Position numbers and translations under genes: made by a program. A DNA stretch of 64,000 nt from Schmidtea nova (lineage: Eukaryota): NCBI GenBank assembly GCA_044892505.1, contig CM097882.1, forward strand, positions 442,742,001 through 442,806,000, written 5' to 3'. Each line of letters opens with the position of its first letter. Positions within the stretch are counted from its first letter, which is position 1. A model generated the notes under the pieces. It saw only the letters and a list, made by a program, of their open reading frames with translations. It was not told the DNA's origin and ran no database searches. This document shows positions 1-64,000 of this stretch, piece after piece.

Positions 1-10
1 GTTTGAGCGC

Positions 11-520
11 TTGATAAAGGCTAGAAAAATGAAGAAACCGGGAAAGAAATTAGTTTCAAAGAAAGTATTTACAAAGAAAACAAAGAAACCAGTTTCAAAA
101 ACTAGTTATACACCATCTAAAAAATTACTTATTGATAATATCCCAAAAAGTAATCGTATTCAAAATACTTACAAACCAAATCCAAAACAAATACATCATC
201 GTAGTTTCTCATTTTTCAACGCATTACTTAAAGCCCCTAGTATTAGAAGAATGAGTATTTTACAATCGTTTCCTAATTACGTTATTGACGATTTACTAAT
301 GATTTTAATTAAAGTTGTTAGAGGTAAAATCAATATAAGTGAATCTAATAGAAGAGTTTTGAACAAACACAAGAAACCATTGTTATCACTTGTAAAAACC
401 AAAAATAGAAAATTAATGCGTAAAATAATATATAAACAACAAGGAGGGTTTATTGCAGCATTGTTACCATTAGCATTATCACTATTAGGAGGTGCTGGTT
501 TATTAGGAAAACAGTCATAA
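11..520 (+). CDS. Basic Polinton/adintovirus protein with C-terminal QQGGFIAALLPL motif (putative virion core protein); first ATG at 30
   Basis: K/R-rich ORF ending in HKKPLLSL...YKQQGGFIAALLPLALSLLGG, a pattern recalled from small conserved Polinton proteins. It lies directly upstream of the integrase. Confidence 0.65.
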   Translation: MIKARKMKKPGKKLVSKKVFTKKTKKPVSKTSYTPSKKLLIDNIPKSNRIQNTYKPNPKQIHHRSFSFFNALLKAPSIRRMSILQSFPNYVIDDLLMILIKVVRGKINISESNRRVLNKHKKPLLSLVKTKNRKLMRKIIYKQQGGFIAALLPLALSLLGGAGLLGKQS

Positions 521-575
521 ACAATGGGACAATCATTGCCTAATCTTAATTTAAACTTTAAATCTTCTTGTTGTA

Positions 576-1623
576 ATGGAGAAGATTTGGACCAACCCAA
601 AACACGAAGCAGGTTTCGGTGGAGTCGAAAAGCTAAGCAAAAATGTATTGAATTCGAAAAAACAGACTCAAAGTTGGTTATCGGGGCAACTTGCATACAG
701 TCTAAACAAACCGATGCTGAAACGGTTTCCGACTCGAGCATATAAAACATATAGAATTAATGATTTGTGGCAAATGGATTTGATGGAAATGATTCCGTAT
801 TCAAAAATTAACAAGGGATACAAGTATATTTTAACATGTATTGATGTTTACAGTCGTTTCGCTCGAGCTATTCCAGTAAAATCTAAATCTGCTAATGATA
901 TGGCAATCGCAATCAAAACAATGATGAAAAAGGATCGTCCAACTAATTTACAAACTGATTTGGGTAAGCTAATAAATATTTTATATAATGATAATTATTT
1001 ATCCAGGTAAGGAATTTTACAATAGCAAAGTCAAAGAAATTATAAAGGGAATCAATCATTACTCAGTATTCTCTCAATTCAAAGCCGCTCATGTTGAAAG
1101 ATTTAATCGTACATTACGAGATCGTCTCAAAAAGTATTTTGTGCATCAAGGGAATAAAACATGGATTAATGTTTTACCACAAATTATTCATAGTTATAAT
1201 CATTCTGCTCATCGAGGTATAAATGGAAAGAAACCTGCTGAAGTAGTTGATACTGAAAATATTTTGAGTGATACAAAAATAAAGAAACCAAAATATAAAA
1301 TAGGTGATCATGTTCGAATTAGTAAAATTAGCGCATCGCCATTCATTAAAAATTTTGATAGTAATTGGAGTGATGAGGTATTTCAAATATCGAAAGTCAA
1401 CACAGTCCAGAATCCTGTCATGTATACTATTTCTGATTCTGATAACAATATAGTCAGTGGAAAATTCTATAAACAAGAATTACAAGTTATTCCCCCTCCG
1501 ACAATATTTAGAATTCAAAAAATATTGAAAACTAAAATGGTCGGTAAAGATAAACAATACTACGTCAAGTGGCATGGATATAAAGAACCATCATGGATAT
1601 CGTCAAAAAACCTAGTAAAGTGA
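576..1623 (+). CDS. int: Polinton integrase (rve DDE plus C-terminal chromodomain), two exons 576-963 and 1007-1623, 334 aa
   Basis: Motifs WQMDL (D), spliced LQTDLGKEFY (D), HVERFNRTL (E), YKIGDHVRI, and the chromodomain YYVKWHGY. Removing the GT-AG intron 964-1006 joins the two listed ORFs in frame. Confidence 0.92.
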
Positions 1624-2639
1624 ATTTTTATACTTTATTACCAAGTAATAGCTGTCCGCTAATACATCCAGACAATCAAGCCAGTAAATTCATGGTCAAT
1701 CTTCAAAATCCAATTTATTTAGATGGTAATTGGGAAGTTGCATTACAAGATTTCACGTTTGTGTACAATACATTTCCATTTTATAGTCAATGTAAGATTG
1801 ATTACAAAAGAATTGAAAAAAGAACATGCAGTGGTCTATTCATCATCAACAATTTTGAAAGAATTTATAATATTCCTAACCAAAATTTGAATGTTCATTG
1901 TAGTATGTATTTCAGCAATGGTTGTTTAAATATTAATTGTGATTTTACTCCATATACAATTACATTTAAAAATATTGAAGAAGCCAAGCGAATGGGAAGT
2001 AATCAACTTAAAATTGTGAGTACACTGAAAGAATATCAATTTAAGTTCATATTATTTGAACCGAATAGTTATTTGAAAGAAGATATTACGGTGACAATAT
2101 CTTATGAGGCAGAAATTGAAGATACATTTACATTTGCAAATGATTTGTATATAGTACAATTGGAAGATTTATCTAAATATTTATCATTCAATTGTTCCCA
2201 TATCTTTAAAACTCTAGAGATTAATAAATGGTTCCAATTCTGTCTCAATGATAATATTAGTGAAGTTACATTTGATAAAAACTTGGTCAATACTTTAGGA
2301 TTAGCTAAACAAACGTATAGAGACCGAAACCTTATCGATGGGACTGTGAAACCTAAAATACTTGTTCATCATCAACAAATGTTCATTTACAGTAACATTA
2401 TTGAACCAATAATTGTCGGTGATTCTCTGGTTCCTCTACTGAAATCTGTATGGATCGAAAAATATGAACAGAATGAAGTTGTACAAATAGTAATGGATAA
2501 TCCAATGTACTTACCTATTTCTACCTCATGTATAAACAATATAGAAATAAATATACGTGACGATAGTGGTAAATTAATAAATTTTCCAAAAGATTCAAAA
2601 ACACATTTGACATTACATTTTCGTAAATTAAATGAGTAA
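1593..2639 (+). CDS. Minor capsid protein (penton, single jelly-roll; PX-type)
   Basis: N-terminal LPSNS..DNQASKFMVNLQNPIYLDGNWEVAL and C-terminal FIYSNIIEPIIVGDSLVPLLK..PMYLPI..IEINIRDDSG..LTLHFRK, both typical of Polinton minor capsids. Confidence 0.85.
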   Translation: MDIVKKPSKVNFYTLLPSNSCPLIHPDNQASKFMVNLQNPIYLDGNWEVALQDFTFVYNTFPFYSQCKIDYKRIEKRTCSGLFIINNFERIYNIPNQNLNVHCSMYFSNGCLNINCDFTPYTITFKNIEEAKRMGSNQLKIVSTLKEYQFKFILFEPNSYLKEDITVTISYEAEIEDTFTFANDLYIVQLEDLSKYLSFNCSHIFKTLEINKWFQFCLNDNISEVTFDKNLVNTLGLAKQTYRDRNLIDGTVKPKILVHHQQMFIYSNIIEPIIVGDSLVPLLKSVWIEKYEQNEVVQIVMDNPMYLPISTSCINNIEINIRDDSGKLINFPKDSKTHLTLHFRKLNE

Positions 2640-2997
2640 TCCCGATATAATTTCATTGTATAGTAATAGCCAAACCGGTGGTGAATTACCGTATTTTGTA
2701 GGTAAGCAGTATGGATCAGGTTGGTTGAAAACTATTGGTAGATTCGCACTTCCAATTCTTAAACGACTAGGTAGTTTTGGAATGAAAACTGCTAGAGATG
2801 TTATCATGAAAGACCAGAAAATATTGCCTTCATTGAAAACGAATGCTATGGATGCTGTTTCAAAAGCGATTCCTTCAATTACAAATATGTTTACAAAAAA
2901 TGAACCAGAACCTGAACCAGTAGAACCAAAACGTAAAAAAGGTAGAAAGCGTATAAACAATCGAATGAAAGGACATGGAACTATATTTGAAGAATGA
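2632..2997 (+). CDS. Small Polinton structural protein with QTGG/QYGSG motifs and an amphipathic helix (adenovirus pVI-like by analogy)
   Basis: LYSNSQTGGELPYFVGKQYGSGWLKTIGRFALPILKRLG followed by a basic tail; lies between penton and major capsid with overlapping start/stop codons. Confidence 0.65.
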   Translation: MSNPDIISLYSNSQTGGELPYFVGKQYGSGWLKTIGRFALPILKRLGSFGMKTARDVIMKDQKILPSLKTNAMDAVSKAIPSITNMFTKNEPEPEPVEPKRKKGRKRINNRMKGHGTIFEE

Positions 2998-4214
2998 TTT
3001 GCGGTAAATCTGAATTATGTCTTTTTGATCGACCATCTCCCCAAGCAGTTATTGAATATGGGGTGTTTGAAGAGGTGTTTCCAATGAATTCCATTACAGA
3101 TAGTAGAAATGATATCGAATTTTACATTAACGGTTCACAAACCGAATATTTAGATTTGAATGATACTTTATTATTCGTTACTGTCAAAGTTGTAGATAAA
3201 GATAAAAAACAATTAGCTGATGCTAGTGATGTAGTACCTAATAATTACCTGTTTCATACACTTTTCAAAGATGCAATTCTTGGATTTAATAATATAAAAG
3301 TTGAAGGTGGAAACAATACATATGCGCACAAGGCAATAATTGAAACTATTTTAAATTATACTAGTGATGCAAAAGAAACTTGTCTTACTCCAATGGGATA
3401 CGGCGCATCTGACGATAGAAAAAAGTGGATTAAAGGATCGAAACTTTTCAACATGTGTTCATCATTACAACTAGATTTTTTGGATCAACCTAAATATTTA
3501 CTTCCGGGAGTTAATGTACATATTAGATTGAAGAGATCTGATTCTGCATTATCATTGGCATCTACAGCTGGGAAACCAATAATATAAATAGTAGATGCAA
3601 AATTAATGGTACGAAGAGTTCGATGTGAATCTTCAGTATTAGCTGGACATCAAATTGGATTAAATAACAAACATGCAATTTATCCGATAAAATCAAAAGA
3701 AATTGTATCTTTTGCAATCGGTAAAGGGGCATCATCATTTTACAAGGAGCAAATATTTGGAGATAGAAGAATGCCTAATTTCATTCTTGTAGCTTTTCAA
3801 ACTGAAAATCAATATAACGGATCTTATTCTGCTTCTTCATCTACATTCAAACATTTCAATGTAACATCATTATCTCTGTCAAAAAATACAGATTATCGGG
3901 AAACTTATAATCAAGATTTTGAAAATGATAATTTTAGTGCCACATATATGCAAAGTCTTGTCCGGAATTTAGGATATTTGGATAAAAACTTGAATTGTGG
4001 TATAAGTCTAGATGAATTTAAATCAAGTTATCCATTCTTTACGTTTGTTCTTGCTCCTGATTTCGATTTGAATCAAAGTCAAATCCCTCAAAATGGAAAT
4101 TTACGATTAGATATCAAATTTGGTAAAGCCATTGAGGAACCGGTTCATGTAATAATATATGGAGTTTTTGAAAATGAAATCCAAATTACTGCAAATCGAA
4201 CAGTATTAGTTTGA
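2994..4214 (+). pseudogene. Major capsid protein (double jelly-roll; PY-type) with one in-frame TAA at 3585-3587
   Basis: Motifs KSELCLF, IEFYINGSQTEYLDLNDT, YLLPGVNVHIRLKRS, MPNFILVAF, GNLRLDIKF. ORFs 2994-3587 and 3606-4214 are in the same frame (612 nt apart) and separated only by the stop. Confidence 0.85.
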
Positions 4215-4279
4215 GCTCAAACATCACTGGTTTGAACTCTTATAGTAAAAATGAACCAAATCACTATAGTAAAATTATC

Positions 4280-4662
4280 ATGGAGTAAGATTTTAATTTG
4301 TAAAAATAATTAATTAAATTAGTTCAATTCAGGTATATAGACTTGGCAAAAAACTATTGGGAAATCAATTTATTGGAGTTTATCCCTTAGATAAAATTCC
4401 TTATCTGGATGTTAATCAAGCTATCATCGTAAATACTCAGACATCTACTTTGGGTGGTGAACATTGGATTGCTGTTTACGTTAAACCAGATCGAATATAT
4501 GCATTTGATCCATTTGGATGTTATTATCCCAATTTATTAGTTAGTAAATTGCAAACTTTGGGTAAACCGATTGTATACAATAGAATTCGATATCAACATC
4601 CATTAACAATTACTTGTGGTCAACATTGTCTTGCATGGTTATTATCCATGTTAAATGTATAA
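4280..4662 (+). CDS. pro: Adenain-like cysteine protease, two exons 4280-4284 and 4323-4662, 114 aa
   Basis: Catalytic pattern GEHW (H), FDPFG (D), YQ (Q), TCGQHC (C). Splicing 4285-4322 gives MDSIQVYRLGKKLLGNQFIGVYPLDKIP, a family-typical N-terminus. Confidence 0.85.
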
Positions 4663-4694
4663 ACAATTTAATAAAAATAAAATTTAGTATAAAA

Positions 4695-5081
4695 ATGACT
4701 TGTTATTTTATTGATTTTATAGGAATTTACAATAATGGAAGATTAATTATTAATGAATTATGTATTATAAACGTTAATAATATTTTTAGACCTAAATATT
4801 ACATATATAATAAAGTTTGTAGTGAGTGGTATGAGGAGGAAGATTACTTTTGTCCAACATGTATTATGAAAGATATTGAAGATAGTAATGCTATTTTCTA
4901 TGTCACGGATATGGATAAACTTATTGCTTTGAAGAAATATTTTCCCACTTTGAGACTAATCAAATATAATTTAAAAGAAATTGAAGATGTTCCAGATAAT
5001 ATTTCTTGTCCCTATAGAGACCATAGTATGTGTGCCTATAAAGAATGTTTGCGTAGTGTTATAGATTATTTAAAGTCATAA
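4695..5081 (+). CDS. Degenerate DEDD/DnaQ-like exonuclease-fold protein, probably inactive
   Basis: FIDFIG..IINELCII resembles the Exo I pattern but lacks the Glu; C-terminal CPYRDHSMCAYKEC cluster resembles small Polinton exonuclease-like ORFs. ATG at 4695 and a polyA signal near 5097. Confidence 0.5.
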   Translation: MTCYFIDFIGIYNNGRLIINELCIINVNNIFRPKYYIYNKVCSEWYEEEDYFCPTCIMKDIEDSNAIFYVTDMDKLIALKKYFPTLRLIKYNLKEIEDVPDNISCPYRDHSMCAYKECLRSVIDYLKS

Positions 5082-5483
5082 ATATATTGTTATTTCAATA
5101 AATTTATTTCATTGTATTAATGTCTTTTATTATTATTATTTAATGAATATTATTATTTGCAAACTAACAAAGTTAACAAAGACTAGATAAAGTCGACAAT
5201 GACGTCAGAGGTCATGAACTCACATGTCTTTATGAATTCACATGGAAACTGACATGACATCATATGTTATATTGACACACATACTAGTATTATAAACACG
5301 TCAGTGTAATAACCATAAAGAAATATATGTGTGCGTATATTTCTCTCACCTAAAACGTATTTGATTGGCCGGTAAATAACCGTTGAAATATTTTAGTTAT
5401 ATACACTATCTTTTCATTTTTCATCACTTTTTAACAACCAATTTTACTATTGCATTCAATTTAATTAAAATCTCTCAATCAAC

Positions 5484-5966
5484 ATGCTGAATAATATTAA
5501 AAATATAACAAAGAAGAATGTCGCCGCCATGGGTAATTTTATTTTTTATTTTATTATATTATCTTTAAATTATTTCAATTTTCAGCAGCTTCGAATGATT
5601 CCAAGTTGAAGTATGAAGCCCCAGTAAATATTGTTTTAGGGCAAAATGGTATTTATTTTTATTTTAAATATATTTTTTAAAATTTAAAATTTTAGAAATT
5701 CGACAAGTTAAATCAAATTTATTCAGACCGATAGACCAACGCGGACGCATTTTTCCCGCTGATATTGATGCCGAATATACTAATGGTAATTTATTATTTA
5801 ATATTATATATTGTTATTTTAGAAATTATTTTAGAAAATAATGACGAATGTAGAAAATCGTCGAAACAATTTAATAATAATGATGAAGATATGCCAAAGA
5901 ATTCGGAGGAAATATATAATATTTCGGATGATGATGATATTTTGAATGAAAATGAATCTGATAAAT
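5484..5966 (+). CDS. Hidden spliced gene of unknown function: exons 5484-5532, 5586-5648, 5696-5785, 5823-5966 (3' end unresolved)
   Basis: Three AT-rich GT-AG introns (53, 47, 37 nt), all phase 1. The spliced frame is open for 115 codons (MLNNIKNITKKNVAAMAASNDSKLKYEAPVNIVLGQNEIRQVKSNLFRPIDQRGRIFPADIDAEYTNEIILENNDEC...ESDK), and a strong GTAAGT donor follows at 5967. Confidence 0.75.
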
Positions 5967-6714
5967 GTAAGTTTTTATTCTATTTTTATAGCATTTTGAA
6001 ATACCTTTTTAATTTTATAATATATAATTAATAATTTTATAATATGTAATAAATGATTTTCTTAATATTAATAATAATAATTTTACTANNNNNNNNNNNN
6101 NNNNNNNNNNNNNNNNNNNNNNNNNNNNNNNNNNNNNNNNNNNNNNNNNNNNNNNNNNNNNNNNNNNNNNNNNNNNNNNNNNNNNNNNNNNNNNNNNNNN
6201 NNNNNNNNNNNNNNNNNNNNNNNNNNNNNNNNNNNNNNNNNNNNNNNNNNNNNNNNNNNNNNNNNNNNNNNNNNNNNNNNNNNNNNNNNNNNNNNNNNNN
6301 NNNNNNNNNNNNNNNNNNNNNNNNNNNNNNNNNNNNNNNNNNNNNNNNNNNNNNNNNNNNNNNNNNNNNNNNNNNNNNNNNNNNNNNNNNNNNNNNNNNN
6401 NNNAAATAATTTATGATATTATTTTAATAATTTTAAACTATTTAAGATATTTCAAGACATATCATAGTAAATTCGTTACTATAATATTTCTTCAAATATT
6501 TTAAACTTACTATTTCAAGTTATTTTTATAATAATAATAATAATTTACGTTATCTCACGATGAAATCGAGATAATGTACAAATATTTTATAATACTATTT
6601 TAATTCAATTTTAATTGTATAATTTTAATTTTATATTCTATTTTAATAATAATAATAAACATTTTATAATTTTCTCCTGTATATTCAGGCTCTCTATACC
6701 CTAAATATTGCAAC

Positions 6715-9700
6715 ATGTCAGGTAGACACAGCACTCAATGTCACAAACTCATGACTGTTTATTATCGTCAGAAGTTTAATGGCATTGATTACTATATATG
6801 TCCAAAATGTGAGACTTCACAATCCCTACCCTACTCTGATTTTTATTCTAAACATCATGAGCATCTTACACAATTTTTCAAATCGAAAAAACTTATTTTT
6901 AAAAAATGTAAAAATCAATCTTCTTCGTCGATTAAGGTATCTACTGAGAAATCGTCTTCGGTTAAAATTTCGTCGAATAATGTATCTGTTGATAATTCTT
7001 CTAAGAATAAATTACTCAATAATTTATTAAATAATTCAGACGTTCAAATTATTAATATAAATAATAATAATAATAATAATATCAAGAAAAGACCTGCTGA
7101 TAAAATTAAAATTATTGCACCTAAAAAATATAAACCAGAAGTAATTATAATTAGCGACGATGAGGAAATTATTAATCAAATAGGAGGATCTATTGATATC
7201 GACGATGAGCCTGTAGTGGAAAAAGACTTAAGGGGATCTCGACGCTCGTTAACTTTTAATGTTGAATCCCATAATATTAATCAAATTGCTGTCACAGAAA
7301 AAATTTCTGTGCGGTTAAATAAAGAAATTATCAAAATGGGGAACGTAAAAATTCAATTCGCCCTTAATATTGAATTTGAAAAAGATGGGGTCTTTAAGAA
7401 TGAATTTTTGTCCACTAAAGCTGAGATCTTTTCAGATAATTTCTTAATAGAAAGCATTAGGAAATTAAATAATAAAATAGAAAATTTTACACAACGGGGT
7501 AGCGGCTGGATTGTTAATAAAATAATGGAAATCCATTTTATTTTGACAAAAATTTCTACCATGAATCGATTATCTGGCCACGGACATTTTGAAACTCCTA
7601 GCCCATTAAAAAATAAAAGGGCAATTATAAATGTAAAAAATTCAGATGATTTATGTTTTATATATAGTGTTTTGGCTATAACAAAATATAATTTAATCGT
7701 TAATAATCATAGTTCAGCCTCGAGTTATGTACCGTATTTAAATGATTTAGTTTTTGACCCTTTAAAAGACTGTCCCATGAAATTATGTAATATCCCTAAA
7801 TTCGAAAATAATAACCCTGGCTTAGCCATTAATGTGCTATCTTATAACCCTAAAGTGATTAGAAATAACAATATAGATATAGAAGATGATGATTATGTTC
7901 CTCATCATCCCCACTTGGAAATAATCCATCGCACAAAATTAAATCATTTAAACCCTATTTATCTTTTATTATTAGAAGATAAGGGAATTTTCCATTATAC
8001 TGCAGTTATTAATCTGCAAAGGTTAATGAACAGTAGTATAAATAGTACAGTTACCAATAGGATTCAGTCGATATGGTGTCCCAGATGTTTAAACGGTTTC
8101 CGTATTCAGGAAACCTTTGATAAGCATTTTAATTTATGTAAAAATAATCAAATAGGTGCAACCCTTTATAGTCTACCAAAAAATAAATATTTAGAATTTA
8201 AGGACTATTCCAAAACCGTAACCCCACCTTTCGTAATTTATGCTGACTTTGAGTCAATTTTACCGGGTGATGACAGGTATCACCAAAAACATTTACCGAT
8301 ATCAGCAGGTCTATTACTTTTAAATAATTTAAATAATTCAAAATCATATTATGAATTTATAGGTCTTGAATGTGTGTTAGAATTTTTAAAGAAAGTGGAG
8401 GAAATTGCTGTCACAATAGTACTCCCGTATTATGATTTATTCGGAAATACTCCATTAGGGCCTTTATCATTTGCTGAGCAGGAAGCTTTTAGGACTTGTT
8501 CAAATTGTTATTTATGTAAGAAACCAATTAGAAATAGAGTTCGTGATCACGATCACTTTTCCGGTAGATATCTTGGCGCTGCTTGCAACATTTGTAATAT
8601 TTCCCGTAGAATTAGAAAACACTTACCTGTTATTTTTCATAATTTGAAAGGTTATGACCTACATCACATTTTGAAGTATGGTCTGTCTGATTGTTCATCT
8701 TGGGAATTAAATATTATTCCGACTACTACAGAGAAATTTATTTCTCTTATAGCTCACATTGATAAACTTGCTGTTAGGTTTATTGACAGTTATCAATTTG
8801 TATCAGAGTCTTTAGGTAATGCGGTTAAAACTCTGTCAGTTTTTCCCTTAACATCTTCAGTTTTCACTGGTTCAATTATGGATTGTAAGGGTATTTTCCC
8901 TTTTAATTTTGCTACGAGTCTTGAAGTCCTAGAATCCACTCTTGAATTGCCTCCGATTTGGGCTAAGGTGTCTGAGGCTGATTATTTACGAGCTCAACAA
9001 ATTTGGACTGAAAATAATTGTCTCAACTTGTTAGACTATATGAAGGTTTATCTAAAGTTGGATGTATTTCTTCTAGCGGATTACTTTCAACAATTTCGAG
9101 CTAAGTCCATTGCTCACAATGGCTTAGATCCCTTAAATTTTTATGGTATTCCCGGTATGAGTTGGGCATCTGCTTTGATGACTTTGAAGGAACCCATTGA
9201 ACTCCTTCAAGACATGGAAATGTATAATTTCTATGAGGGAGGAATACGGGGTGGTTTGACATTCGTCAACAAAAAGTATGTAAAGACTGATGATGACACT
9301 GAGCTTTTATATATAGATATTAATAATCTATATGGTTGGGCTCTTAGCCAAAATCTTCCTTTTAGTGATTTTAGGTGGGTACATAATGATCTTGATAATA
9401 TCTTGACCGAATGCATGTCGACGGATATTGATAATCTTTCATATGGTTACACTATGGAAGTTGATATCATTGTTCCTGAAAACATGCATGTGTTTTTGGA
9501 TGATTTCCCTGTTGCTCCGGAAAAGATGTACCCACCAGGTTCGAAAGTTGACAAGTTAATGCTTACACATTATCCGAAGTATAACTATGTCATACATTGG
9601 AGACTGTTGAAGATGTTTGTTTCTCTTGGGGTTCAGGTAGTTAAAATTCATAGAGCGATTAGATTTAAGCAATCGAAAATCTTTAAGGCTTACATCGATA

Positions 9701-10662
9701 CGAATACTCAGTTAAGAGCAAACTCTACCAATAAACTCGATAAAAATTATTTTAAACTCAATAATAATAGCCTATATGGTAAATCCGTCGAAAATCTGAA
9801 AAAACGGATGAATTTGAGATTATGTAATTCATCTGAAAAGATGATTATATATGCTTCAAAGCCGTCTTTCAGAAAGTCCATCAAAATTGATGACGATCTG
9901 ATTGCAGCACATCTGAATAAAGATTTAATATGCTTAGATAGACCTAGTTATATCGGTCAAACGGTACTAGATCTATCTAAGCTGCGGATGTATCAACTGC
10001 AATATATTGAATTGCAGAAATATAGGGACCTCTTTGATTGTAAGATAGGAATTGTCGCTGGCGACACTGACTCGTTCTTTCTTGAGGTTAGACACTGTAA
10101 ACTTGATGTTCTCTTACCAGCTATGATTTCTGATGATCTTTTAGATACATCAAACTATGATCCAGACCATCCATTATATTCACGACGTCTCGACTCTGTT
10201 ATAGGGAAATTTAAGGATGAAAGTAAAGGTCATAGATATGAGGAATGGGTTTTCTTGCGTCCTAAATGTTATAGTCTTCTTGGTGATGCTGAATATAACA
10301 AAGCCAAAGGGATTACACTTGGCGAGACTGAAATAAAACATCAATCTTATCTTGACTGCTATCTAAATGACCGGATAATAACTGTTCCTCAAACGCGTAT
10401 AGGAACTAAAAATCACCAGCTTTATACGATAAAAAATACAAAAATAGCTCTTAGCAATAATGACGACAAGCGCGAATGGGTGGGGAGAAATGCAAGTCTC
10501 GCATTTGGTCATTATTTAGGAATCAATGCTAGAACCTATGACGATAACATTCCACCGAATCAATTACCGGATGAATTACCAAGTCAAATCAATGTGTCAA
10601 ATAACTATACCGATTATCCGTACGATTTCGGTGAATGGGCTGATCCCTTTGAAAGAACTTAA
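6715..10662 (+). CDS. polB: Protein-primed family B DNA polymerase (pPolB), intact, 1315 aa
   Basis: Exo motifs YADFES, HNLKGYD, YLKLDV; polymerase motifs YIDINNLYG, KLNNNSLYGK, GDTDS; also GIRGG, RPKCYS, KAKG. Carries a Cys/His-rich EndoVII-like segment (CYLC..RDHDH..GAACNICN). Confidence 0.97.
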   Translation: MSGRHSTQCHKLMTVYYRQKFNGIDYYICPKCETSQSLPYSDFYSKHHEHLTQFFKSKKLIFKKCKNQSSSSIKVSTEKSSSVKISSNNVSVDNSSKNKLLNNLLNNSDVQIININNNNNNNIKKRPADKIKIIAPKKYKPEVIIISDDEEIINQIGGSIDIDDEPVVEKDLRGSRRSLTFNVESHNINQIAVTEKISVRLNKEIIKMGNVKIQFALNIEFEKDGVFKNEFLSTKAEIFSDNFLIESIRKLNNKIENFTQRGSGWIVNKIMEIHFILTKISTMNRLSGHGHFETPSPLKNKRAIINVKNSDDLCFIYSVLAITKYNLIVNNHSSASSYVPYLNDLVFDPLKDCPMKLCNIPKFENNNPGLAINVLSYNPKVIRNNNIDIEDDDYVPHHPHLEIIHRTKLNHLNPIYLLLLEDKGIFHYTAVINLQRLMNSSINSTVTNRIQSIWCPRCLNGFRIQETFDKHFNLCKNNQIGATLYSLPKNKYLEFKDYSKTVTPPFVIYADFESILPGDDRYHQKHLPISAGLLLLNNLNNSKSYYEFIGLECVLEFLKKVEEIAVTIVLPYYDLFGNTPLGPLSFAEQEAFRTCSNCYLCKKPIRNRVRDHDHFSGRYLGAACNICNISRRIRKHLPVIFHNLKGYDLHHILKYGLSDCSSWELNIIPTTTEKFISLIAHIDKLAVRFIDSYQFVSESLGNAVKTLSVFPLTSSVFTGSIMDCKGIFPFNFATSLEVLESTLELPPIWAKVSEADYLRAQQIWTENNCLNLLDYMKVYLKLDVFLLADYFQQFRAKSIAHNGLDPLNFYGIPGMSWASALMTLKEPIELLQDMEMYNFYEGGIRGGLTFVNKKYVKTDDDTELLYIDINNLYGWALSQNLPFSDFRWVHNDLDNILTECMSTDIDNLSYGYTMEVDIIVPENMHVFLDDFPVAPEKMYPPGSKVDKLMLTHYPKYNYVIHWRLLKMFVSLGVQVVKIHRAIRFKQSKIFKAYIDTNTQLRANSTNKLDKNYFKLNNNSLYGKSVENLKKRMNLRLCNSSEKMIIYASKPSFRKSIKIDDDLIAAHLNKDLICLDRPSYIGQTVLDLSKLRMYQLQYIELQKYRDLFDCKIGIVAGDTDSFFLEVRHCKLDVLLPAMISDDLLDTSNYDPDHPLYSRRLDSVIGKFKDESKGHRYEEWVFLRPKCYSLLGDAEYNKAKGITLGETEIKHQSYLDCYLNDRIITVPQTRIGTKNHQLYTIKNTKIALSNNDDKREWVGRNASLAFGHYLGINARTYDDNIPPNQLPDELPSQINVSNNYTDYPYDFGEWADPFERT

Positions 10663-11563
10663 TCTTGGCTTTATTCAAGTTCATCACATCATCAACATTA
10701 TTATATGAAAAATATTATTTTCGGCTTTAGTTTCAATAAATTTTCAAACTTAGAAAATATATTTTGTTGTTATTATTATTATTATTATTTATATTATTAT
10801 TTTNNNNNNNNNNNNNNNNNNNNNNNNNNNNNNNNNNNNNNNNNNNNNNNNNNNNNNNNNNNNNNNNNNNNNNNNNNNNNNNNNNNNNNNNNNNNNNNNN
10901 NNNNNNNNNNNNNNNNNNNNNNNNNNNNNNNNNNNNNNNNNNNNNNNNNNNNNNNNNNNNNNNNNNNNNNNNNNNNNNNNNNNNNNNNNNNNNNNNNNNN
11001 NNNNNNNNNNNNNNNNNNNNNNNNNNNNNNNNNNNNNNNNNNNNNNNNNNNNNNNNNNNNNNNNNNNNNNNNNNNNNNNNNNNNNNNNNNNNNNNNNNNN
11101 NNNNNNNNNNNNNNNNNNNNNNNNNNNNNNNNNNNNNNNNNNNNNNNNNNNNNNNNNNNNNNNNNNNNNNNNNNNNNNNNNNNNNNNNNNNNNNNNNNNN
11201 NNTTTGAATTGAAAATCAATCCTTGTTTTTCGATAAACAAAGAAGATCAAAGAAACAATGAAACAAAGACAAATTAATTTCAGCGACAACTTCGTTACTT
11301 TTCCATGACATACAAATCTGGAAGATAGCAAAATTATATGATACGAAACAACAAATATACCTGTATTTCAGTTCCAATGCAAAATTCTCTAACAAGTTTC
11401 CACAAATACTTTGATCAAAAATAAAATTCACAGTAATATACGAGATGATTCACAAGTTTACACAATAACAGGATAACACGCTTTATAACAAACTAACAAG
11501 TTCTATAACAAAAAAAAAGTAAGTTCCTCGACTGATTTCAAGGAAATTATATGGATTGTAAAG

Positions 11564-12596: not shown

Positions 12597-13359
12597 TGTT
12601 GGGGTTAGTATAAAAATCAAAAAAGTAATAAGAAATATCAAAATAAATAAAAGTGCAAAAATTAATTAAAATTTATTTAAAATTTAAAATTAATATTCAT
12701 CGGGGGAAATGGGTATGGTTGAATGCCAAATCAAAAGACAAACCCAAAAATAATAGTAGAAATTTAATAAGGGGTCCCCAGAGAAAGTTATTTAATAAAA
12801 ACAAACTAATTAAAATTAATTAATCGCTCAATGGGAAACCCGAGACAATGGGAAGCCCGAGGCAATGGGAAACCCGAGCGATGAGGAAAGCCCGAGCGCA
12901 AAAAGACCCGAGAGATCAAAGTCGGGGCAATTAGGGAAAATCCATTCGAGGGTAATCAAAATTAATTGTCAGAAAAACAATTACACCCGAGATTGATTAA
13001 CTTTTAGATATCGATTAAACCTAATTGCTATTTGCAAGAACTATAAAAGGCAGCGCAAAACAGAGGACGGGGCCGACGAGTGGATAGTTAAAAAGAGATT
13101 ATTAAAAAGTCTTTGAAAACAAATAAAGAAAGATCCTGGAAAAATTAAACAGACAAAGTAAGAAAGTATCCTGTTAATTAAAGAGTCAAATCCGAATCCA
13201 AAGAAAGCGTAAATTGATCAAAGGCGTGTATAACAAAGATTGTAATTTGTGTTGATCGTGAATAAAAAGATTGTTCTGTGTTGGGTTCATTGATTTCGAT
13301 AATTAAAGAGCACGAGGAGTCAGGTCAGTAAACCGATCTTACAGACTAATAACCCAACA
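12597..13359 (+). mobile_element. 3' LTR of an LTR retrotransposon with upstream polypurine tract
   Basis: Starts TGTTGGGG and ends AACCCAACA; preceded by AAAGGGGTGAGGTA; contains internal GGAAACCCGAG repeats and AATAAA. No TSD is visible. Confidence 0.7.
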
Positions 13360-18321: not shown

Positions 18322-19280
18322 AGAACGCGCGTTTCACGCGCGTTCAATGCGTACTGTGATTTGTCTTATACAACAAGGAAGAAGAACGCGCGTTTCACGC
18401 GCGTTCAATGAGTACAGTAATTTGTCTTAAACACACACACAAGTTATCTGTGTACAAAAAATTATTATTATTAAAAGTTATATTTCATTAGTCTTTGTTT
18501 CTTTGCATTCACTTTGCAAAGTCTTTGTTAATATGCACGTGCATTGCAATGTCTTTGTTAATATTTGTTTTTGTTGATGAGTCATAACAATGAGTCATAC
18601 CAATGAGTCATACCGATGAGTCATGTAGATGAGTCATACTGATGAGTCATACTGATGAGTCATACCAATGAGTCATACTGACGAGTCATGTAGATGAGTC
18701 ATCCCAATGAGTCATCCAAATAAATCATACCGATGAGTCATTAAGAAAACAATTTAATCTTCAATGGTATGACCATTTTACTCACCCTTCAATTACCTTT
18801 TGTTTGATGTAAGGATTAAAAAGGTTGAAGGTTTTTGACCCTTTCAAGGTTCAGGACCCTCCATACATCTTCGAAAGTATGACCATCATACTTACCTCTC
18901 AATTACCTTTTGTTTGATATATAACTTGTAAGGATTGTAAAATGTTAAAGGTTTTTGACCCATTGAAGGTTAAAGACCCTCCATAGACCTTCGTGGGTAT
19001 GACAATTGGATAAACCTCTCCAAGACCTTTCGAATAATACCCTTGTTTGAAGGTTAGACCTTATTTGACCTTTGGAAATTTAAAATTTGAATTGAGTCAT
19101 CGATGACGTCATAAAATTCAAATTTGAAATGAGTCATCGATGACGTAATCGATGAGTCATAACAAAGAAAAAATGAGTCATCGGGGGGGGCGGGGGATAT
19201 GGGTGACTCGTCGATGACGTCATTGTCTTTGTTTAACGATGAGTCATGGAGCACACTTCTGTCTACTATATATATATACT
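18322..19280. repeat. Candidate Polinton terminal inverted repeat arm ending ...CTACTATATATATATACT
   Basis: Terminus reads 5'-AGTATATATATATAGTAGAC on the minus strand (AG..CT type end). Includes TGAGTCA and TGACGTCA arrays, a G-run and internal duplications. The partner arm is not in the window. Confidence 0.5.
18578..18740. repeat. 13-bp-period minisatellite, 13 units, 11 with a perfect TGAGTCA (AP-1) site
   Basis: Counted directly: TGAGTCA starts at 18578, 18591, 18604 and so on to 18734. Confidence 0.9.
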
Positions 19281-21753: not shown

Positions 21754-23244
21754 TTATTTTTTGAATTTTAACTTCCGGAAGTCACGAGAAATATAGGATA
21801 GGTACATGATGAGTCCACTTATTGCTATAATAATACCTACAACAAAAAAGGTAATATTGTAAGACAAAGTCATGTCATATATCCATCCAGAAATCGGTGG
21901 ACCGATAAAAACTCCTATTCCTTGATTGACAAGAATTACACCTAATGTCGCATCTAAATTTTTCAAACCGAAAAGGTCAATCAGTATGACAGATGAAAGG
22001 GTCATGACAGGTCCACTCATAGTTCCATATATGAAATTGTATATAATCATAAAAATATAAGTATTCATTATCCAACTGAAGCTTAAAACTAATCCACTCA
22101 AAACAAGTGTCATATTATACAGATGAAATCGGTTTACACCTCTAAATGTTGCCAAGTACCCAAATCCTAACCTTCCACATAAATTTCCAATACCAATTGA
22201 GGCAATTAAATGACTTGCTTTGCTGGTTGAAATTCCAGATAGTAAAGCTCTATCTTTAGTAAACATATAGGGGGTATCGAATCCAATACTTGTTAAAAAA
22301 TTTGAAATAATGAATAATATAAAAACCGGATTTTTCAATAATTGTATAATTGATAGACTTGCATTTTCTTCAGGCTTTCTATCGACTTCATCTTCTAAGC
22401 ATTTATCAGTTTCATTTATCTCTTCTTCAGAAATATTAACGGAAGCAGGATTTACAATGTCTTGTTCACTGTGTTTTCCCTGAGGTTCCCGATTTTTAAA
22501 GGTCAGTGAAGAAAGTATCAAAGTGTATAATATCAGACTAAGGATCAACATGGTGAATTGCCATCCACGTTTTTCAATTAAAAATTCAATGAATGGACTA
22601 AAAATAAACGTTCCCAACCCCGATCCACAGATTGCGATTCCAAGAGCAAGAGATCTTTTCTTTTCGAACCAAACATTGACAATAATTATGGACGGCAAAT
22701 ACATTAACCCAAAACCTATAGAACTTAATACTGAACTAGACAATATTAAAACCCATAATTTATCGCAGAAATAAGGTATGGTGAAACCTAGGGCCCCAAG
22801 AAAGGCACCAGCAATTGCGACAGATCTATAACTAAATTTACTACATAAGTAACTTGATACGGGTGCCATGCAACATGTTATTGCAATGATCAATGACCCC
22901 ATGAAACCCACATTAGACCGGGATATATTGAAATATTTAATGAACTCCGGTGTAAAAACTCCATAGGAAAATAAAACTCCATCCACAACTAAATTGCTAA
23001 AAAAACAAGCAACTACCACAACCCAACCCCATCCTTGATCAGGTGGATGAATCTTTTCATTTTTCTTAAGCAGTTTCTCTTCTGTCTGTGTTTCTACTTG
23101 ATTTTTATCCCTACCCTCAAGGATTTCATTGATAATCATTATCTTACAACATTCAACCTCTTGTTTTATATCTTGATTTACATCTATTTTTTCTAAGTTA
23201 TTTTCAGTAATTTTTATAGTGCAATTTTTTTCATTAGACATCAT
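21754..23244 (-). CDS. Monocarboxylate transporter (SLC16/MFS), single exon, 496 aa
   Basis: Signature PPDQGWGWVVVVACF, WFEKKRSLALGI, two bundles of hydrophobic helices with a polar central loop, and GRLGFG. Confidence 0.93.
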   Translation of the reverse strand: MMSNEKNCTIKITENNLEKIDVNQDIKQEVECCKIMIINEILEGRDKNQVETQTEEKLLKKNEKIHPPDQGWGWVVVVACFFSNLVVDGVLFSYGVFTPEFIKYFNISRSNVGFMGSLIIAITCCMAPVSSYLCSKFSYRSVAIAGAFLGALGFTIPYFCDKLWVLILSSSVLSSIGFGLMYLPSIIIVNVWFEKKRSLALGIAICGSGLGTFIFSPFIEFLIEKRGWQFTMLILSLILYTLILSSLTFKNREPQGKHSEQDIVNPASVNISEEEINETDKCLEDEVDRKPEENASLSIIQLLKNPVFILFIISNFLTSIGFDTPYMFTKDRALLSGISTSKASHLIASIGIGNLCGRLGFGYLATFRGVNRFHLYNMTLVLSGLVLSFSWIMNTYIFMIIYNFIYGTMSGPVMTLSSVILIDLFGLKNLDATLGVILVNQGIGVFIGPPISGWIYDMTLSYNITFFVVGIIIAISGLIMYLSYISRDFRKLKFKK

Positions 23245-23318
23245 TGCTTATATAATTTAATAAAAAATTTAATATTTAAACTAATATTTAAATTAATATT
23301 TCCGCAGATATTATTCCC

Positions 23319-63050: not shown

Positions 63051-64000
63051 TTATGCCGACTGATGCTTTATGTCAATACCCGCCAAAGTTGCCCCCTTAG
63101 CTTTAATAGTTTCCTCGTCACCTAAAAGACTAACATTTAGGTCTAAGAAACACCCACTCTTTGTACTTAAGCCCTTTTTTCTCGTCTTTGAACTTGCCAA
63201 TGACAGAATCAATGTTCCTACTGTATAGTTGGTGATTCGGATCATAATTAGAAGTGTCAAGTAAGTTATCTCTTATCATGGCCGGTTAAATATTATGAAG
63301 CTTACAATTTCTAATCTCAAGAAAAAATGAATCGGTGTCACCAGCTTCGATGTTGATTTCGCAATTGAATTCATTACGATATTTTTGTAACTCTTCATAC
63401 TGCAGCTGGTACATTCTAAGTTTAGATAGATCCAGTACTGTTTGACCAATATAACTGGGTCTATCCAAACACACCGATTCCTGATTCAGCAAGACGGCAA
63501 CCAAATCATCGTCAATTTCGAAAGTCATTTTAAAAGTTGGCTTAGAAGTATATGTAATCAGCCTAGAAGCCGAATTACATAATCTTAAATTTATGCGCTT
63601 TTTAAGATTCTCTACGGTTTTACCGTAGAGACTATTATTTAATAATTTATAACAATTTTTACCCAGAGCATTACTTGATTCTGCTCTAAGTCTGGTATTG
63701 GTATTGATGTAATCCTTAAAAATACGTGCTTGTTTAAATTTAGTTGCCCTATGGACATGAGTTATTTTTACTCCAAGAGAAAGAAAAAGTTTGAGAAGTC
63801 TCCAATGAAGAACATAGTTCTTCTTGGGATAATGCGTAAGCATCAACTTCTCAACCTTTGAGCCAGGTGGACACATCTTTTCAGCGGCAACTGGCAAATC
63901 ATCCAGCTTGTCGTGAATCGAATCAGGAATTTCTAAATCGACTTCTAATGTAAATCCAAATGTTAATACTTCTAAATCAGCAGATTCATAGTAATAAATT
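63051..64000 (-). pseudogene. polB: Second Polinton pPolB, decayed; continues beyond the window
   Basis: KLLNNSLYGK, RPSYIGQTVLDLSKLRMY and GDTDS; in-frame stop at 63286-63288, a frameshift after RPKC near 63136, and loss of the C-terminus after KHQS. Confidence 0.92.

Follow-up and report, generated by a model that had tools for sequence, protein, structure and literature searches.

A 64,000-nucleotide (nt) stretch of the Schmidtea nova genome (contig CM097882.1, positions 442,742,001 to 442,806,000 of the forward strand), referred to here as the window, was analyzed together with adjoining and related loci. The window opens inside a Polinton/Maverick element, which is identified as a Polinton by its integrase, ATPase, protease, and ends. 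Very probably, this is a damaged copy from a young family in which six likely spliceosomal introns interrupt the genes for integrase, protease, and polymerase, so that production of the three proteins would depend entirely on nuclear splicing of their mRNA. The family of the window copy is designated A, and related families found in the searched genome (1.25 Gb, 283 contigs) are designated B to F. All genes of the element within the window are encoded on the plus strand.

Probable introns of the integrase and protease genes

A sequence-only reading of the window had pointed to five short GT-AG inserts of 43, 38, 53, 47, and 37 nt, and all five were recovered at these lengths, none of which is divisible by three. 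The A+T content of the inserts was 84-96% (the 37-nt insert being taken one base off), while that of the surrounding 1-kb bins was 69-75%. When a longer polymerase intron described below is included, GT..AG ends with a consensus-like donor were found in six of six window introns. A seventh intron, of 50 nt and phase 1, was found in a gene of the left arm of the element (minus strand, 8559-8510 of the upstream locus L021), and the corresponding site in family B held an intron of 48 nt in all eight loci checked. Six of the seven introns are located in the 5' parts of their genes, at most approximately 500 nt from the start codon. A comparison of 12 introns revealed no clear common sequence, with one pair of different introns at p 0.04 against shuffles. 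The inserts behave as real introns.

The same reading had matched the inserts to host introns of 33, 45, and 56 nt. In the gene at 52.3-55.1 kb of the window, the sole host gene examined, candidate introns of 45, 66, 43, 85, 46, 45, and 56 nt with an A+T content of 81-95% were identified by eye from the sequence. Lengths of 45 and 56 nt were therefore recovered, and one of 33 nt was not found in that gene. The resemblance of the element's short introns to these candidates would be expected if only spliceable inserts survive.

The integrase gene begins with the ATG at 576, and its first exon (576..963) had a match to the Pfam family rve above the cut-off (E=1.8e-8), as a retroviral-like DDE integrase. 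A 43-nt intron of phase 1 (964..1006, GTAAGC..CAG) separates it from a second exon (1007..1623) with a C-terminal chromodomain (Pfam Chromo, E=5.5e-5, below the cut-off); homologues of the protein were at most 70% identical. The junction is spanned by 112 of 120 integrase homologues, of which all but one (111) align there without a gap (an X having been placed at the junction). A GT..AG pair exactly 43 nt apart occurred at only seven of 4463 coding-block positions. Since such pairs are rare and one is present exactly where the homologues require it, the intron appears to be beyond chance.

Alignment of other genomic copies and of relatives had been proposed as a check on the inserts. Among other copies, the exact exon-flank pattern was found at 869 places with a gap of 40-60 nt and at none with a gap of 3-12 nt, indicating a position fixed in the family; that the inserts are private to the window copy was therefore rejected. 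Of 100 listed flank matches, one had lost the acceptor AG (by eye). The relatives gave a divided answer: the integrase intron was without counterpart in 28 of 28 measurable metagenome loci (37 fetched), while the protease intron was common to metagenome relatives.

Families B and C, which are 82-86% identical to family A in the integrase and protease, contained a 44-nt integrase intron at the same base in eight of 10 and 10 of 12 loci, respectively, with one junction side missing in the rest. Similarly, families E and F (one locus each) contained introns of 54 and 40 nt at the same site. The interior of the intron had an identity of 0.60 between A and B and 0.66 between A and C, no better than shuffles (p 0.37 and 0.22), while the flanks were 76-84% identical. 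Across the five families, the ends of the intron were thus kept while its interior and length (43, 44, 44, 54, and 40 nt) drifted. The intron was absent from family D of the same genome, which has a high copy number and is 70-78% identical in most loci. The idea of an integrase intron in every Polinton of this host was rejected, as the family D integrase is uninterrupted.

Many copies of family D also appeared as inverted pairs of the ATPase-to-protease block approximately 7.2 kb apart (for example, L231-L234), apparently with no polymerase between them, resembling a palindromic derivative.

Family D reads G-GT-AAAG at the site of the integrase intron, while in family A a copy of the hexamer GGTAAG stands at either end of the intron (963-968 and 1006-1011). 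The D site and the repeated hexamer would fit an intron that arose by a short duplication at a proto-splice site. In a tree of exon 2, families A, B, and C grouped at 98/93 (ultrafast bootstrap/SH-aLRT), and in a second exon-2 tree of 21 rows, with one or few per family, families A, B, C, and F grouped at 93.5/97 (SH-aLRT/ultrafast bootstrap). The best tree would place, with weak support, a single gain of the integrase intron after the split from family D, the alternative being a loss in D.

The protease gene is predicted to begin with an exon of five bases (4280..4284), composed of the start codon and two bases, followed by a 38-nt intron of phase 2 (4285..4322, GTAAGA..TAG) and a second exon (4323..4662) that encodes an adenovirus-type cysteine protease (Pfam Peptidase_C5, E=8.9e-6, above the cut-off). 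The intron follows ATG-GA, the unspliced frame stops after two codons, and the frame of exon 2 has no Met until its last residues. The same arrangement of ATG-NN before the donor was found in family A, family B (nine of 10 loci), family C (12 of 12, with an AAG acceptor), and family D (three of four with an intact acceptor), as well as in metagenome relatives. The intron is 38 nt long in A, 40 in B, and 39 in C. Among metagenome loci with a protease start, it was found in four of five, which represent three distinct elements of 54-59% identity with introns of 39, 37, and 47 nt; it was absent from the fifth locus, at 43% identity. Inspection of 21 protease homologues by eye showed two that read on through an intron-like leader and one whose beginning corresponds directly to the predicted spliced form. 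As it is common to distant metagenome relatives, the protease intron predates family A, and by this distribution it is older than the integrase intron.

The claim that integrase and protease are made only through nuclear splicing was borne out insofar as both unspliced frames stop, that of the integrase at 144 amino acids (aa), with the splicing itself being predicted. The broader suggestion of genes intronized wholesale to host format appeared too strong: five of the eight window genes and the upstream ATPase have no insert, the integrase of the abundant family D, in the same genome, is uninterrupted, and the protease intron predates family A.

The probable polymerase leader and its long intron

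The third intron-bearing gene had been described as a separate gene that an annotation of open reading frames (ORFs) would miss entirely. The preferred reading is that it comprises four coding exons belonging to the polymerase gene, joined to the main frame by a 722-nt intron that the earlier reading had missed. From the ATG at 5484, exons of 49 nt (5484..5532), 63 nt (5586..5648), 90 nt (5696..5785), and 144 nt (5823..5966) were traced, each of which ends in phase 1. They are separated by introns of 53 nt (5533..5585, GTAATT..CAG), 47 nt (5649..5695, GTATTT..TAG), and 37 nt (5786..5822, GTAATT..TAG), all of phase 1. A fourth GT-AG intron of phase 1 (5967..6688), which includes a run of N, then joins the main exon (6689..10662) with its frame of 1330 aa. 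In sister copies, the fourth exon is 144, 147, 192, or 240 nt and the long intron 647-833 nt. A TATA-like box at 5398..5404 may serve as the promoter, and inspection by eye showed a like motif at the corresponding position in B and C.

Families B and C share the leader design with three exons. The chain could be followed in 15 of 20 loci of family A, 29 of 32 of B, and 30 of 38 of C; among these, 15, 29, and 28 loci, respectively, had it open and in phase. Variants in leader exon length were multiples of three except for two exons among the 30 C loci, while the leader introns of B and C took all three remainders modulo three. The three short leader introns are supported by the frame only. In addition, three short inserts of phase 1 were seen by eye before the polymerase frame of a metagenome relative with a polymerase identity of 44%. 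In B and C (L110 and L144), the last leader exon was also seen to be built from tandem repeats that keep the frame, are rich in Pro-Asn-Tyr-Ala or Met-Pro-Ala, and differ in number between loci.

The long intron splits a Cys codon (T|GY) in all 74 loci traced, which come from three families, and the same split was seen by eye in a rearranged, D-like locus. At this site, the unspliced polymerase frame has Gly instead of Cys. A domain profile built without the Cys at the split site gave 60 protein matches, and the 38 that match from the start of the domain were examined. A Cys was present five to nine residues before the next Cys in 37 of these homologues, with the exact spacing in 16; the remaining homologue starts too far downstream to show it. 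A word search with the polymerase N-terminus gave no match. The exons at 5484-5966 thus most likely belong to the polymerase gene as its 5' end, as judged from frame and codon conservation, in which case the polymerase too would need splicing.

The main exon encodes a Cys/His-rich N-terminal domain, an insert at residues 611-644 with a weak match to endonuclease VII (Pfam Endonuclease_7, E=0.0028, below the cut-off), and what are presumably the motifs of a family B polymerase. These motifs were recognized by eye, and the Pfam polymerase families gave no match.

Alternative readings and a proposed stepwise origin

Several observations weigh against the proposal that the six inserts are introns of functional genes. 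No spliced read or contig was seen, although the runs concerned are of unknown kind and cover positions 1-5630 only; no joint at a predicted intron was present among the 15 of 73 joints listed, which is not evidence either way. The contigs of these four runs cover the introns and show tagmentation adapters. The long intron of family A varies mostly in threes (one remainder in 14 of 15), so the frame test is weak for that family. The three short leader introns are unalignable between families, and their positional homology is therefore not established. The polymerase frame is open in only eight of 20 sister loci, and copies that are nearly identical do not count as independent evidence. Additionally, the five intron-bearing families group together at only 64.9/77 (SH-aLRT/ultrafast bootstrap) in the second exon-2 tree, and family D thrives in the same genome although it lacks the integrase intron, so that intron is not needed for life in this host.

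These points leave room for other explanations, of which the least improbable keeps the short introns real and assigns the exons at 5484-5966 to a separate small gene that ends in a long A+T-rich stretch, with the polymerase starting at its own Met. Retention of the long intron would bring the frame to a stop at 6031, the polymerase frame offers a Met at residues 16 and 28, and the leader peptides are of low complexity and differ among families. Nonetheless, a start at either Met would lose conserved Cys residues of the N-terminal domain, and the T|GY split is invariant in the traced loci, which makes this arrangement improbable. It is still less probable that the inserts are disabling and that the families bearing them are non-autonomous, moved by an intron-less helper such as family D. 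The defective window copy and the many family D copies with an uninterrupted integrase would suit a helper, but five families keep open exons (73-91% identity) and intact GT and AG ends around unrelated interiors, disabled genes would not retain splice sites, and family D itself has the protease insert. Viruses use recoding, and a frameshift or hop in translation could in principle bypass the inserts. As the integrase insert is 43, 44, 54, or 40 nt depending on the family, no single shift fits; the ends of the inserts match the spliceosomal consensus, and the unspliced protease would end almost at once. A bypass is therefore scarcely credible.

A further suggestion would add to the intron reading instead of replacing it, namely that the introns are adaptive control points. 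Those near the start might raise expression or help to escape silencing, or tissue-dependent retention might switch the protease or polymerase off. Retention of an intron as a tissue-dependent switch is known from the P element. The bias toward 5' gene parts, the persistence of the protease intron across 54-59% protein identity, and the three phase-1 inserts of the metagenome relative would agree with such a role, whereas the capsid and ATPase genes do without introns, and the conservation is accounted for just as well by the simple persistence of an old neutral intron. The suggestion is accordingly a doubtful one, while some benefit of the introns to expression is possible.

For the preferred reading, in which the six inserts are spliceosomal introns, a sequence of steps may be proposed. 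The genes would be transcribed by RNA polymerase II from TATA-type promoters, since obligatory splicing would imply nuclear transcription under that enzyme, and the host U2 spliceosome would remove the introns. The introns may have been gained singly while the lineage lived as a nuclear, integrating element, that of the protease first and that of the integrase later at a pre-existing G|GT site, where the flanking repeat suggests a local duplication or repair event. They would then have been kept mainly because the gene fails unless the intron ends stay spliceable, with selection acting on the ends only. In its widest and rather speculative form, this would describe a branch of animal Polintons that depends on the host spliceosome for replication, integration, and maturation through stepwise gain, and that uses start-proximal introns, perhaps with a TBP of its own, as an expression switch or an escape from silencing. 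If so, family D and families A, B, C, E, and F would record an intron gain in progress within one genome, with hundreds of copies on each side.

The family, the window copy, and known systems

The element had been placed at 1..10740 of the window; it in fact begins approximately 4.4 kb upstream, with its left terminus at position 5579 of L021. The left part in L021 contains the terminus, two small genes, a TBP-family gene, and the A32-like packaging ATPase (Pfam Pox_A32, E=2.5e-6, above the cut-off). The TBP-family gene is located on the minus strand (8763-9275, Pfam PF00352, E=1.7e-14) and was likewise observed in families B and C and in the metagenome loci L163, L164, and L179; a literature search returned no paper on TBP in Polintons. 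Several short GT-AG inserts in a run were also seen by eye in a copy of family C, close to its left end (L150, approximately 1000-500, minus strand).

Within the window, the gene order is a basic ORF, the integrase, a likely minor capsid gene, a small ORF, a likely major capsid gene, the C5 protease, a Cys-rich ORF, and the polymerase-like frame. The basic ORF (2..520) starts upstream of the window, had no Pfam match above the cut-off, and is conserved in related families and metagenome contigs; it is taken here to be a core-type protein. The uninterrupted ORF at 1593..2639 had no Pfam match and is presumed from its position to encode the minor capsid protein. It is followed by a small uninterrupted ORF (2632..2997) kept in related families and metagenome contigs, and by the likely major capsid gene (2994..4214), for which the DJR-like family PF21738 gave E=1.9e-4, below the cut-off, with the match in the half after an in-frame stop. 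The Cys-rich ORF (4695..5081) is without interruption and is also present in related families. The stop, at 3585-3587, marks the window copy as damaged; in sister loci, the major capsid frame was open in 17 of 20, the remaining three being truncated or rearranged.

The family is, judging from its copies, young, of high copy number, and recently mobile, with elements of approximately 17 kb. Among 2595 candidates, all 40 scored matched positions 700-1300 at approximately 100% identity and full length, insert included (one being the window itself), and among 18,725 candidates for integrase exon 1, all 150 scored matched at 99-100%. Sister loci were approximately 99% identical. Both termini were found in five of seven sister end pairs, each with a 6-bp target duplication and a span of 16.7-17.2 kb. 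In the window copy, the right terminus was not visible in the readable sequence, and an extension of the element to 19 kb was rejected, as a short repeat alone was shared there. No relative was found in the viral_contigs collection.

The window copy is inserted in a long terminal repeat (LTR) retroelement, the LTRs of which (L021 1-338 and window 13022-13359) are 98.8% identical. The part of this retroelement at L021 1-5578 encodes gag and a Monjiviricetes-type fusion protein (PF24664, E=8.5e-39), an envelope that appears mononegavirus-like (compare PMC6431247) and that would point to an animal host, likely a planarian flatworm. Farther along the window, positions 18322-19250 contain the short repeat common to the Polinton left arm, a 13-nt tandem array, and repeats of 110-120 nt, possibly the end of another element. 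An uninterrupted frame of 497 aa for an MFS transporter (PF07690, E=2e-40) is located at 21754-23247 on the minus strand, while the other host gene here has many short introns. Two further Polinton copies, of families C and B, lie end to end at and just past the end of the window (63286-64000, minus strand, continuing into L022 and L023), with more insertions.

Expansion of Mavericks has been reported in planarians. Polintons of vertebrates (PMC8097293) and Caenorhabditis share with the present family genes for an integrase, an A32-like ATPase, and a C5 protease and probably also capsid-like and polymerase genes, along with long terminal inverted repeats, a 6-bp target duplication, and a length of approximately 17 kb. 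In the vertebrate study, the genes of intact elements are said to have no introns, with Kapitonov and Jurka 2006 cited as agreeing, and in the Caenorhabditis study (bioRxiv 10.1101/2022.07.12.499685) the core genes are described as intronless, with introns only in cargo genes. In contrast, the integrase, protease, and polymerase genes described here have predicted introns, and a TBP-family gene is present as well. A literature search found no report of conserved spliceosomal introns in animal Polinton core genes, with Kapitonov and Jurka 2006, Pritham 2007, and flatworm Repbase entries, which could annotate such exons, lying outside the search. Passages of PMC8502044, PMC11296320, and 10.64898/2026.07.28.741278 likewise contained nothing that bears on this.

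Survey practice bears on this contrast. Loci with stops, frameshifts, and GeneWise 'introns' were classed as degraded in one survey (PMC8097293), and introns were left out of account when ORFs were called in another (10.1101/2025.04.19.649669). As intact Mavericks are recognized by intronless open frames, intron-bearing families would be scored as dead and the polymerase N-terminus would be mis-called. The earlier expectation that an ORF-only annotation would call the element broken therefore holds for the families, while this particular copy is truly defective.

Introns are also known in Polinton-like genomes of protists. In cryptophyte Polinton-like viruses (PMC12220804), they are self-splicing group I introns of 309-376 bp and occupy a small gene located upstream of that for the capsid, in contrast to the GT-AG introns of 37-53 nt described here. 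In the maverick-polinton-like proviruses of dinoflagellates (PMC11957031), the introns are of spliceosomal type; these belong to mobile introner families and were mostly acquired after integration, whereas the present introns show no clear common sequence family, keep the same sites from family to family, and multiply together with the element. The pPolB2 Polintons with an HNH insert (PMC10748475) resemble the present polymerase with its weak endonuclease VII-like match, a lead only as to class, and the available text of that report does not mention spliceosomal introns.

Conserved core-gene introns depart from the published picture of Polintons, while nuclear DNA viruses and transposons with introns are already familiar. 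The P element is an intron-bearing DNA transposon that depends on host splicing, and the adenovirus polymerase has a short coding leader exon. The adenovirus E2B unit (PMC7851563) is similarly part of a nuclear element whose replication genes depend on host splicing. Compared with these systems, which belong to other families, the introns described here are short, host-like, and apparently gained stepwise in one lineage, and a single genome in which some sister families have the integrase intron and another lacks it would offer a rare before-and-after view of intron gain.

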